A stretch of 64,000 nt of DNA from Candidatus Methanophagales archaeon (GCA_025966525.1 JAPDIG010000001.1:13435-77434); one strand, 5' to 3'; shown: positions 41,047 to 41,173, counted from the first letter of the stretch. Translations and numbers: made by a program. Notes: generated by a model not told the origin, from the sequence alone.

Positions 41047-41173
41047 TGCCCCCGGCGGGATTTGAACCCGCGACCTCTCGCTTACAAGGCGAAGTAACCA
41101 CTTCTGCACCTCTCTTGAAAAAGGAATGGAGAAGCGGTACATATAGCGCTCTCCCAAGCTGAGCTACGGGGGC
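41047..41173 (-). tRNA. tRNA-Thr (anticodon UGU) with a roughly 53-nt intron at a non-canonical position (between nt 26 and 27)
   Basis: Minus-strand sequence GCCCCCG-TA-GCTC-AGCTTGGGA-GAGC-G [53 nt] TTCGC-CTTGTAA-GCGAG-AGGTC-GCGGG-TTCAAAT-CCCGC-CGGGGGC-A. All conserved positions are present. CCA is not encoded. Confidence 0.6.

Follow-up and report, generated by a model that had tools for sequence, protein, structure and literature searches.

A tRNA-shaped gene upstream of an archaeal Ro60/Rsr gene is most likely a tRNA/Y-RNA chimera

The locus and the tRNA-shaped gene

We analysed a 64,000-nucleotide (nt) stretch of DNA from a Candidatus Methanophagales archaeon (GCA_025966525.1, JAPDIG010000001.1:13435-77434; hereafter the window) that contains a 127-nt tRNA-shaped RNA gene (41047-41173, minus strand) about 230 nt upstream of a Ro60/Rsr gene on the same strand (39297-40817, minus strand). 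The Rsr gene encodes a protein of 506 amino acids with TROVE and vWA_Ro60 domains (Pfam); the assignment is supported by PDB matches to human Ro60 (9nen), D. radiodurans Rsr (2nvo), and Thermus phage phiLo Ro60 (9kop), and by 221 homologues. The tRNA-shaped gene comprises a tRNA-Thr(UGU)-type body and an inserted hairpin, and scores 143.7 bits with covariance model R1. A preliminary description, made from the sequence alone, had recognised a tRNA-Thr(UGU) gene with an insertion and had placed it next to an Rsr module, and our analysis supports both points.

With RNA nucleotides numbered 1-127 along the minus strand (41173 to 41047), the sequence reads as a full tRNA cloverleaf with 53 nt of extra sequence between G26 and the anticodon stem. 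In particular, the acceptor stem GCCCCCG/CGGGGGC comprises 7 base pairs (bp), all G/C, and is followed by discriminator A; the D-arm (41148-41164, minus strand) reads GCUC-AGCUUGGGA-GAGC, has GG in its loop, and is also seen with RNAalifold and in the covariation set; the anticodon arm (41077-41093, minus strand) reads UUCGC-CUUGUAA-GCGAG, with anticodon UGU at 41084-41086 and with U33 and A37 in the loop; the variable loop is AGGUC; and the T-arm (41055-41071, minus strand) reads GCGGG-UUCAAAU-CCCGC and falls within a partial Rfam tRNA match. U8, A14, and G26 are present, and every tRNA invariant and tertiary-pair position is in place. The preliminary description had listed these invariants and left the strand unstated; the sequence and an in silico spliced form agree with it and place the gene on the minus strand.

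The insert (nt 28-80; 41094-41146, minus strand) lies after G26, outside the canonical intron position 37/38, as had been described. It comprises, from 5' to 3', a linker, CUAUAU; GUA, followed by stem strand b', CCGCUUCU; C-CAUU; an apical stem, CCUUUU/GAGAGG, closed by loop UCAA; UGC; stem strand b, AGAAGUGG; and a bulged U, followed by UAC, which pairs with GUA. The pairing CUUCU...AGAAG, noted before as an internal hairpin of an intron, is real and belongs to an 11-bp helix.

The insert hides the gene from standard detectors. ARAGORN with default settings reports 0 tRNA genes in the window, and the match of the Rfam tRNA model is confined to the 3' two-thirds of the gene and scores 26 bits, under the model's cutoff of 29. 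With the insert deleted in silico, ARAGORN calls tRNA-Thr(UGU), and it likewise calls a tRNA in 22/22 homologues. With its intron search (-i) applied to the full sequences, ARAGORN proposes an anticodon and an intron position that differ in nearly every homologue (Leu, Gln, Asn, Ile, Phe, Val, and others), and there is therefore no consistent alternative canonical fold.

Covariation supports the cloverleaf and the hairpin

We aligned 20 family members to the structural model and scored the predicted pairs. In this alignment, which is fitted to the model, 22/40 pairs show compensatory double changes, and 94.2% of paired cells can pair, versus 42-54% when the partners are slid by 1-3 columns. 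Compensatory pairs are present in the main helix of the insert (10/11), the anticodon stem (4/5), the T-stem (3/5), and the acceptor stem (2/7). RNAalifold, applied to an unfitted MAFFT alignment, also returns a cloverleaf with an extra hairpin, with a slightly different register of the anticodon stem. The cloverleaf with hairpin is not a product of chance. Compensatory changes occur in every helix, and in lineages down to 57% Rsr identity (36% by model search), indicating purifying selection.

This selection bears on the proposal that the gene is a decaying tRNA pseudogene with an inserted element, or the attachment (att) site of an integrated element forming the 41.2-64 kb block; the preliminary description had suggested an integration target. 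Some copies do have degenerate anticodon loops, and the window does carry mobile-element genes (several TnpB genes, a D5-like primase-helicase gene, and a LAGLIDADG endonuclease gene). Against this, helices are maintained by compensation; the 64 kb contain no second copy of either tRNA half (at <=3 mismatches); none of the 29 window open reading frames (ORFs) scanned against Pfam or PHROGs gave an integrase match; and the plus-strand neighbours at 41487-42560 and 42909-43424 are conserved beside the RNA in three related loci (L014, L022, and L023). We consider a pseudogene or att site already largely refuted and give it hardly any weight.

The insert is a permuted form of a motif shared with neighbouring RNAs

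The insert shares with other RNAs of Rsr loci a motif, here termed the Y motif, of the design 5'-GAGG-UGN-(8-9 nt)-NUAC(A/U)(C/U)C ... (complement of the 8-9 nt)-A/U-rich-(U)CCUC-3'. A regular expression for its 5' half matches the window only three times, always on the Rsr strand and no more than about 270 nt upstream of Rsr: at 41112, in the insert, where the partner is complementary at 8/8 positions; at 41043, in a segment that we term module 2; and at 40906, in module 4. In Rsr loci the expression has 73 matches in 465 kb (both strands), versus 1 in 202 kb of control loci; nearly all of the 73 are beside Rsr, on the Rsr strand, and have a complementary partner of 7-9 bp that is followed by ...UCCUC. 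The sequence of the 8-bp stem b differs in almost every unit while its pairing is maintained, stem a covaries between units (GAGG/CCUC versus GGGG/CCCC), and the internal loop places UGN opposite the A/U-rich stretch. At distant Rsr loci, the intergenic DNA around Rsr is packed with tandem Y-motif units. We also considered a kink-turn (an L7Ae site) in the internal loop, and rejected it because the positions that would have to form tandem G.A pairs vary among units.

The partner of stem b is located 40-190 nt downstream in stand-alone units, whose stem is closed by the RNA ends, and 19-37 nt upstream in the tRNA-like genes, whose stem is closed by a loop. The insert is therefore a circularly permuted Y motif, in which the tRNA body takes the place of the variable loop of the stand-alone units. 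The flank NUAC-(U/A)(U/C)C(G) is conserved in chimeras, where UUCG is at the same time the 5' strand of the anticodon stem, and equally in stand-alone units, from which an anticodon stem is absent.

Module 2 (40947-41045, minus strand) is a 99-nt stand-alone, YrlA-like Y-like RNA, identified by its fold, its motif match, and its conservation in relatives, and starts 1-2 nt past the discriminator of the tRNA-like gene. Two hairpins lie within its terminal stem, GGAGG-UGU-GAGGAGAG.../...CUCUCCUC-UUAUU-CCUCC: one resembles a T-arm, GUGGG-UUCGAAU-CCCAC, and the other, which is closed, resembles an acceptor stem. Module 2 lacks a D-arm, though it is the closest topological match to bacterial YrlA. 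In four loci (L023, L027, L024, and L002) the module 2 stem is kept and the inner module is swapped for unrelated sequence. Module 2 is followed by a U5 run (40940-40944, minus strand), probably an archaeal terminator; by a conserved hairpin, GCCUAGUGUCGGGUCAAAGCGCGCUAGGC (40911-40939, minus strand), supported by its fold and by compensatory changes in relatives; and, in the leader of the Rsr gene, by module 4 (40845-40906, minus strand), a stand-alone Y-like RNA of the GGGG/CCCC variant that reads GGGG-UGA-AGGAGUAG-CUACACC ... CUACUCCU-UGUAUU-CCCC and was identified by its motif match, its fold, and the covariation of stem a between units. Module 4 and the hairpin lie after the U5 run and may belong to the Rsr mRNA, which would allow autoregulation by Rsr. 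The ends of modules 2 and 4 pair as a Ro-type stem; those of the tRNA-like RNA pair in the acceptor stem.

The Y-like stem begins 1-6 nt from the discriminator in 14/21 chimeras, and this spacing raises the question whether the tRNA shape is a mere signal for RNase P and RNase Z that frees the downstream Y-like RNA, the tRNA-like piece being a by-product. The upstream side of the gene would fit such a role: there is no obvious TATA box directly upstream of the tRNA-like gene in the window, and a 53-residue AbrB/MazE-fold ORF (41164-41325, minus strand; Pfam PF04014, E 1.1e-5; present at the same position in 9 loci) runs into the RNA 5' end, its stop codon UAG being nt 8-10 of the tRNA-like RNA, so that ORF and RNA may be co-transcribed. 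There are precedents for long transcripts in which a tRNA-like element guides cleavage by RNase P (cited in bioRxiv 10.1101/312249). But a processing signal would have no use for a conserved, covarying 50-nt Y-motif hairpin or for a maintained anticodon arm; selection is evident in the anticodon loop, which is either frozen or switching (see below); and some copies, at locus L035, stand alone and are followed by a T-run or an ORF. We therefore regard a mere processing signal as improbable. At L042, a MazE-family gene is present upstream too, on the opposite strand.

The RNA gene is linked to Rsr in relatives

The nearest Rsr genes (72-78% identity) are in metagenome-assembled genomes (MAGs) of a Guaymas Methanosarcinales archaeon and of Ca. 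Methanoxibalbensis ujae, from Methanophagales, the order of the anaerobic methanotrophic archaea group ANME-1; a 76%-identical Rsr is encoded on a 55-kb IMG/VR viral contig. These relatives agree with the archaeal setting proposed earlier. In both MAG loci and in the viral contig, the tRNA gene with insert and module 2 are directly upstream of Rsr; in all, the tRNA gene with insert is present at 20 Rsr-linked loci besides the window.

We searched metagenomes with a DNA pattern made from the 3' half of the insert only. The search returned 29 loci: 15 true homologues, one of them on the same contig as L001, the Methanosarcinales MAG locus from the genome scan, and otherwise chance matches inside ORFs. 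Wherever at least ~300 nt of downstream DNA is available (13/13 loci, window included), Rsr lies ~300 nt downstream. Loci found through the Rsr protein also carry the tRNA gene with insert: L034 (61% Rsr identity), L042 and L044 (60%), L035 (57%, two copies), and L045 (36%, three copies). At L045, the same kind of insert occupies the same site in Ile-GAU-like and Arg-CCU-like bodies, beside normal tRNA-Leu genes.

Two of these loci have further features. On the 261-kb contig of L045 (1280-2000 and 4100-6100, plus strand), eight Y motifs flank the 36%-identical Rsr on both sides, interleaved with the normal tRNA-Leu genes and with three chimeras of different tRNA bodies; in the chimera at 1677-1802, the T-loop and anticodon arm are degenerate. 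At L035, an ORF with a weak LAGLIDADG match (1910-2404, plus strand) lies between a tRNA gene with insert and the next Y-like unit, which suggests that homing endonucleases invade these RNA arrays.

We also scanned viral contigs with the pattern GAGGTG-N9-11-TTACTTCG, which gave mostly chance single matches. The only true array among the viral-contig matches listed is L088, a 68-kb IMG/VR contig on which four stand-alone Y-like units (2270-2650, plus strand) lie downstream, not upstream, of a 36%-identical Rsr. No tRNA chimera is present at L088 or among the matches listed (727 kb of viral-contig loci). BLAST of the RNA cluster against GenBank phages returned generic matches to tRNA 3' halves only.

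The insert junctions lack a bulge-helix-bulge motif

The preliminary description had read the insert as an intron at a non-canonical position, and had named beforehand a search for a bulge-helix-bulge (BHB) motif at the junctions as the test of that reading. We scanned all pairs of exon end and exon start in six homologues for a 4-bp helix between two 3-nt bulges (hBHBh') and for relaxed forms (HBh'/hBH). In these six homologues, the scan returned no BHB of either kind with cuts at 26-29/81-83. BHB-like motifs, searched for by hand and by script, occur only at sites whose cutting would destroy the tRNA. Applied to a tRNA-Lys(UUU) gene at locus L037 for positive control, the script returns a strict hBHBh' (H4, h6, h'6) at 37/38. 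That gene (2000-2143, plus strand; Rfam tRNA 45.6 bits) has a 69-nt intron at 37/38 with a perfect hBHBh', and is located mid-array; the array has at least five Y-like units and precedes a 48%-identical Rsr. Such elements therefore do use ordinary BHB splicing, and the scan does detect BHBs.

The Y motif itself provides a second argument. Its conserved UUAC|UUCG lies across the supposed 3' splice site: the NUAC-UUCG flank runs on into the 5' strand of the anticodon stem, and the motif thus straddles the would-be junction. In the L022 group, UUCGC is retained and an additional CUCGC strand is present, as if motif and anticodon stem both had to stay. Third, the closest relatives are Euryarchaeota (Methanophagales and Methanosarcinales), which have mostly alpha4 or alpha2 endonucleases, reported to require a strict BHB in the canonical position (PMC4090602, PMC5829648). 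The absence of a BHB at the junctions, the identity of the insert as a permuted Y motif, and the crossing of the 3' junction by that motif argue against reading the insert as a non-canonical BHB intron.

The anticodon loop is either frozen or switched

The 7-nt anticodon loops of homologues are CUUGUAA (UGU), CUGUCAA (GUC), UUGUUAA (GUU), GUUUGGA (UUG), CUUAUAA (UAU), AUGCUAA (GCU), and CUAUGGA; loops of other sizes are AUUUAA (6 nt, in L002) and CUUUGUAA and CCCGAUAG (8 nt, in L018 and L024). The anticodon stem has mismatches in L011 and L016. The L024 gene (1155-1279, minus strand) has, besides its 8-nt loop, a D-loop without G18-G19 (AGAUGAA); its insert and remaining stems are intact.

The variation is bimodal. 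Between lineages with 26-43% body divergence, CUUGUAA shows 0/7 changes, and the deep lineages L034, L042, and L044 keep it; in copies only 1-2% apart in the body, 38-57% of loop positions differ. The loops to which near-identical copies switch include GUC, GUU, UUG, UAU, 6-nt, and 8-nt forms, with Thr, Asp, Asn, and Gln types represented, and the acceptor stem is unchanged. Judged from these sequences, the pattern is that of neither neutral decay nor an ordinary orthologous tRNA, and the loop appears to matter. We rejected a diversity-generating retroelement as the source of the variation, since the changes show no specificity for adenine.

A working anticodon arm would be expected if the gene encoded a decoding tRNA-Thr(UGU), probably virus-encoded, from which the insert is removed, either through an endonuclease substrate of an unrecognised relaxed type or by a BHB-independent, possibly Rsr-assisted route, with the excised piece being the Y-like RNA. 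The complete set of invariants and tertiary-pair positions, the ARAGORN calls in every homologue once the insert is removed, the unchanged CUUGUAA with its compensated stem changes, and the mostly canonical shape of variant loops are all what a decoding tRNA would show, and the L045 inserts in Ile-GAU-like and Arg-CCU-like bodies recall intron transposition in Thermoproteales (PMC4090602). However, a splicing route without a BHB would be needed at junctions where a scan that finds a true BHB finds none, in a euryarchaeal lineage whose endonucleases are reported to be strict; the conserved motif spans the 3' junction; copies that are otherwise conserved have 6-nt or 8-nt loops, mismatched stems, or a D-loop without GG; and anticodon identity changes while the acceptor stem does not. 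A decoding tRNA is thus unlikely in our judgement.

Somewhat more doubtful again is a wider form of that idea, in which the Y-motif insert would represent a new, BHB-independent class of tRNA intervening sequence and the RNAs would be Rsr-bound precursors of virus tRNAs. Virus-encoded tRNAs of several identities (Thr, Asp, Asn, Ile, Arg, and others) could then be matured, protected, or repaired under the gating of Rsr, and anticodon switching could reflect an arms race with host anticodon nucleases, the RNAs serving as replacement tRNAs or decoys.

A tRNA/Y-RNA chimera as the best explanation

We conclude, with a probability of roughly 0.65, that the tRNA-shaped gene encodes a chimera of tRNA and Y RNA that belongs to the Rsr module: a YrlA-like tRNA mimic in permuted form, with a putative Rsr-docking hairpin. 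The RNA most likely has a complete tRNA body of tRNA-Thr(UGU) ancestry, competent to form the L-shape, from whose hinge, after G26 and before the anticodon stem, an irregular hairpin projects. The sequences show the structure, its conservation and covariation, the linkage to Rsr, the identity of the motif, and the absence of a BHB; we infer binding by Rsr, retention of the insert, the processing steps, and a partner that recognises tRNA.

On the chimera model, the RNA would be transcribed from its own TATA box or jointly with the upstream abrB-like gene. RNase P and RNase Z would excise the tRNA-like RNA, and the RNase Z cut would also make the 5' end of the next Y-like RNA. The hairpin would stay in the RNA and dock the Rsr ring, while the tRNA body and anticodon arm would engage a partner that recognises tRNA; nucleases, synthetases, and enzymes of repair or modification are candidates. 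The RNA would thus act as a tether or decoy with tRNA specificity, rather than as a decoder.

Several observations weigh against the chimera. The known Ro motifs GGUCCGA and GNCGAAN0-1G are absent from 40818-41173, where CGAA occurs once, in the module 2 T-loop, and the Y RNA families of Rfam give no match at gathering score (window and six related loci) or at E<=10 (40500-41700). The argument for Rsr docking is therefore one of linkage and analogy; strict membership in a Y RNA family is not established, and our claim is that the RNA works like a Y RNA. The place of the known Ro60-binding sequence is occupied by a different conserved motif, the Y motif. Binding by Rsr and expression of these RNAs are presumed. 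The single-sequence minimum free energy (MFE) fold, at -59.1 kcal/mol, is not the cloverleaf and pairs the D region with the anticodon region; the cloverleaf with hairpin has -53.3 kcal/mol. The metagenome pattern fixed 18 nt of the insert, so that invariance of these 18 positions in the 15 loci derived from it holds by construction; the protein-anchored loci provide independent evidence. Finally, a CUUGUAA loop frozen across lineages, with stem changes compensated, and variant loops that are mostly canonical (7 nt, with U33 and a purine at 37) are the expected look of a working anticodon arm, and leave room for a decoding role.

Comparison with known systems

The closest analogue of the chimera is bacterial YrlA, a tRNA mimic encoded beside rsr, which in M. 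smegmatis is cut by RNase P (PMC4201824; bioRxiv 10.1101/312249). Like YrlA, the RNA described here adjoins a Ro60/Rsr gene, is modular, combining a Ro-type stem with a tRNA mimic (D-arm, T-arm, acceptor stem, and tertiary-pair positions), and co-occurs with a second, simpler Y RNA. The two differ in four respects. First, they are permuted relative to each other: here the 7-bp acceptor stem is open and contains the RNA ends, and a loop closes the Ro-type stem, whereas YrlA ends in its Ro-binding stem and has a loop-closed acceptor stem. Second, the anticodon arm is complete here and absent from YrlA. Third, the motif here is GAGGUG.../NUACUUCG/...AUUAUUCCUC, and in YrlA GNCGAAN0-1G. Fourth, the present RNA belongs to archaea or archaeal viruses, and YrlA to bacteria. 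In topology, module 2 matches YrlA better than the tRNA-like gene does.

Phage phiLo provides a viral parallel. Its Ro60 binds, in vitro, the Y-like RNAs Yrl1 and Yrl2, encoded upstream of its gene (PMC12135203), and the window's Rsr aligns to it over residues 23-490 (PDB 9kop/9l5y). Both systems thus pair a virus-encoded Ro60, which in the window is a probable assignment, with Y-like RNAs just upstream. In contrast to the RNAs of the window, those of phiLo were found by the CGAA motif and have no tRNA cloverleaf; binding was measured there and is presumed here.

Non-canonical archaeal introns (PMC4090602; PMC5829648) resemble the insert in that they interrupt tRNA genes away from 37/38, and similar inserts in different tRNA bodies, as at L045, recall intron transposition. 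Unlike them, the insert has no BHB or relaxed BHB, lies at 26/27, a position absent from the list in PMC4090602, occurs in a lineage whose endonuclease type is described as strict, and has a conserved motif that enters the 'exon'. Circularly permuted tRNA genes (Soma 2007 and Chan 2011, as cited in bioRxiv 10.1101/312249) are also similar, the tRNA-like RNA and YrlA or module 2 being related by circular permutation; as cited there, such genes are matured to ordinary tRNAs via a BHB, and here we see no sign of such processing.

Asgard viruses and Borgs are known to carry Ro60/TROVE genes (bioRxiv 10.1101/2021.07.29.454249; PMC11208441), and the literature mentions such genes for jumbo phages too. 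The full-text literature that we searched on Ro60 and Y RNAs describes no archaeal RNA partners and no tRNA with a Ro-type hairpin, and Rfam 15 contains no match; the gene most likely encodes a tRNA/Y-RNA hybrid, a form so far undescribed in archaea. The locus and its relatives constitute a candidate family of archaeal or viral Y RNAs that would fill a gap in archaeal RNA biology, and their clear consensus, strong covariation, and tight linkage to Rsr make this family directly testable. On the chimera reading, the Y-RNA/tRNA mimicry of bacterial YrlA would have a second, permuted architecture that retains a complete anticodon arm. That arm is strictly conserved or abruptly switched, which suggests a partner specific for tRNA and, possibly, a conflict between virus and host over tRNAs. 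For annotation, the case is a warning that an insertion in a tRNA gene of an archaeal element is not to be called a non-canonical intron unless a BHB is demonstrated.

Other features of the window

The gene content of the window is suggestive of a virus or another mobile element, not of a chromosome, and the Rsr RNA cluster is a probable part of a virus or mobile element of ANME-1-type archaea. At least three TnpB/Cas12f-like (IS605 OrfB) genes are present, all on the minus strand: 36164-37366, 18512-19918, and 48832-49962, one of them about 2 kb downstream of Rsr. A primase-helicase gene (50202-52664, minus strand) encodes Prim-Pol, DnaG zinc finger, D5_N, and DUF5906 domains; the LAGLIDADG endonuclease gene is at 61937-62920 (minus strand); the plus-strand neighbour at 41487-42560 encodes a phrog_1362 protein; and further window proteins have PHROG matches. 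The window also contains a 2304-residue ORF at 20197-27111 (minus strand). The sole Rfam match at gathering score in the window is an HgcC family RNA (50037-50139, plus strand; 60.9 bits), located between the TnpB gene at 48832-49962 and the primase-helicase gene, on the strand opposite to both.

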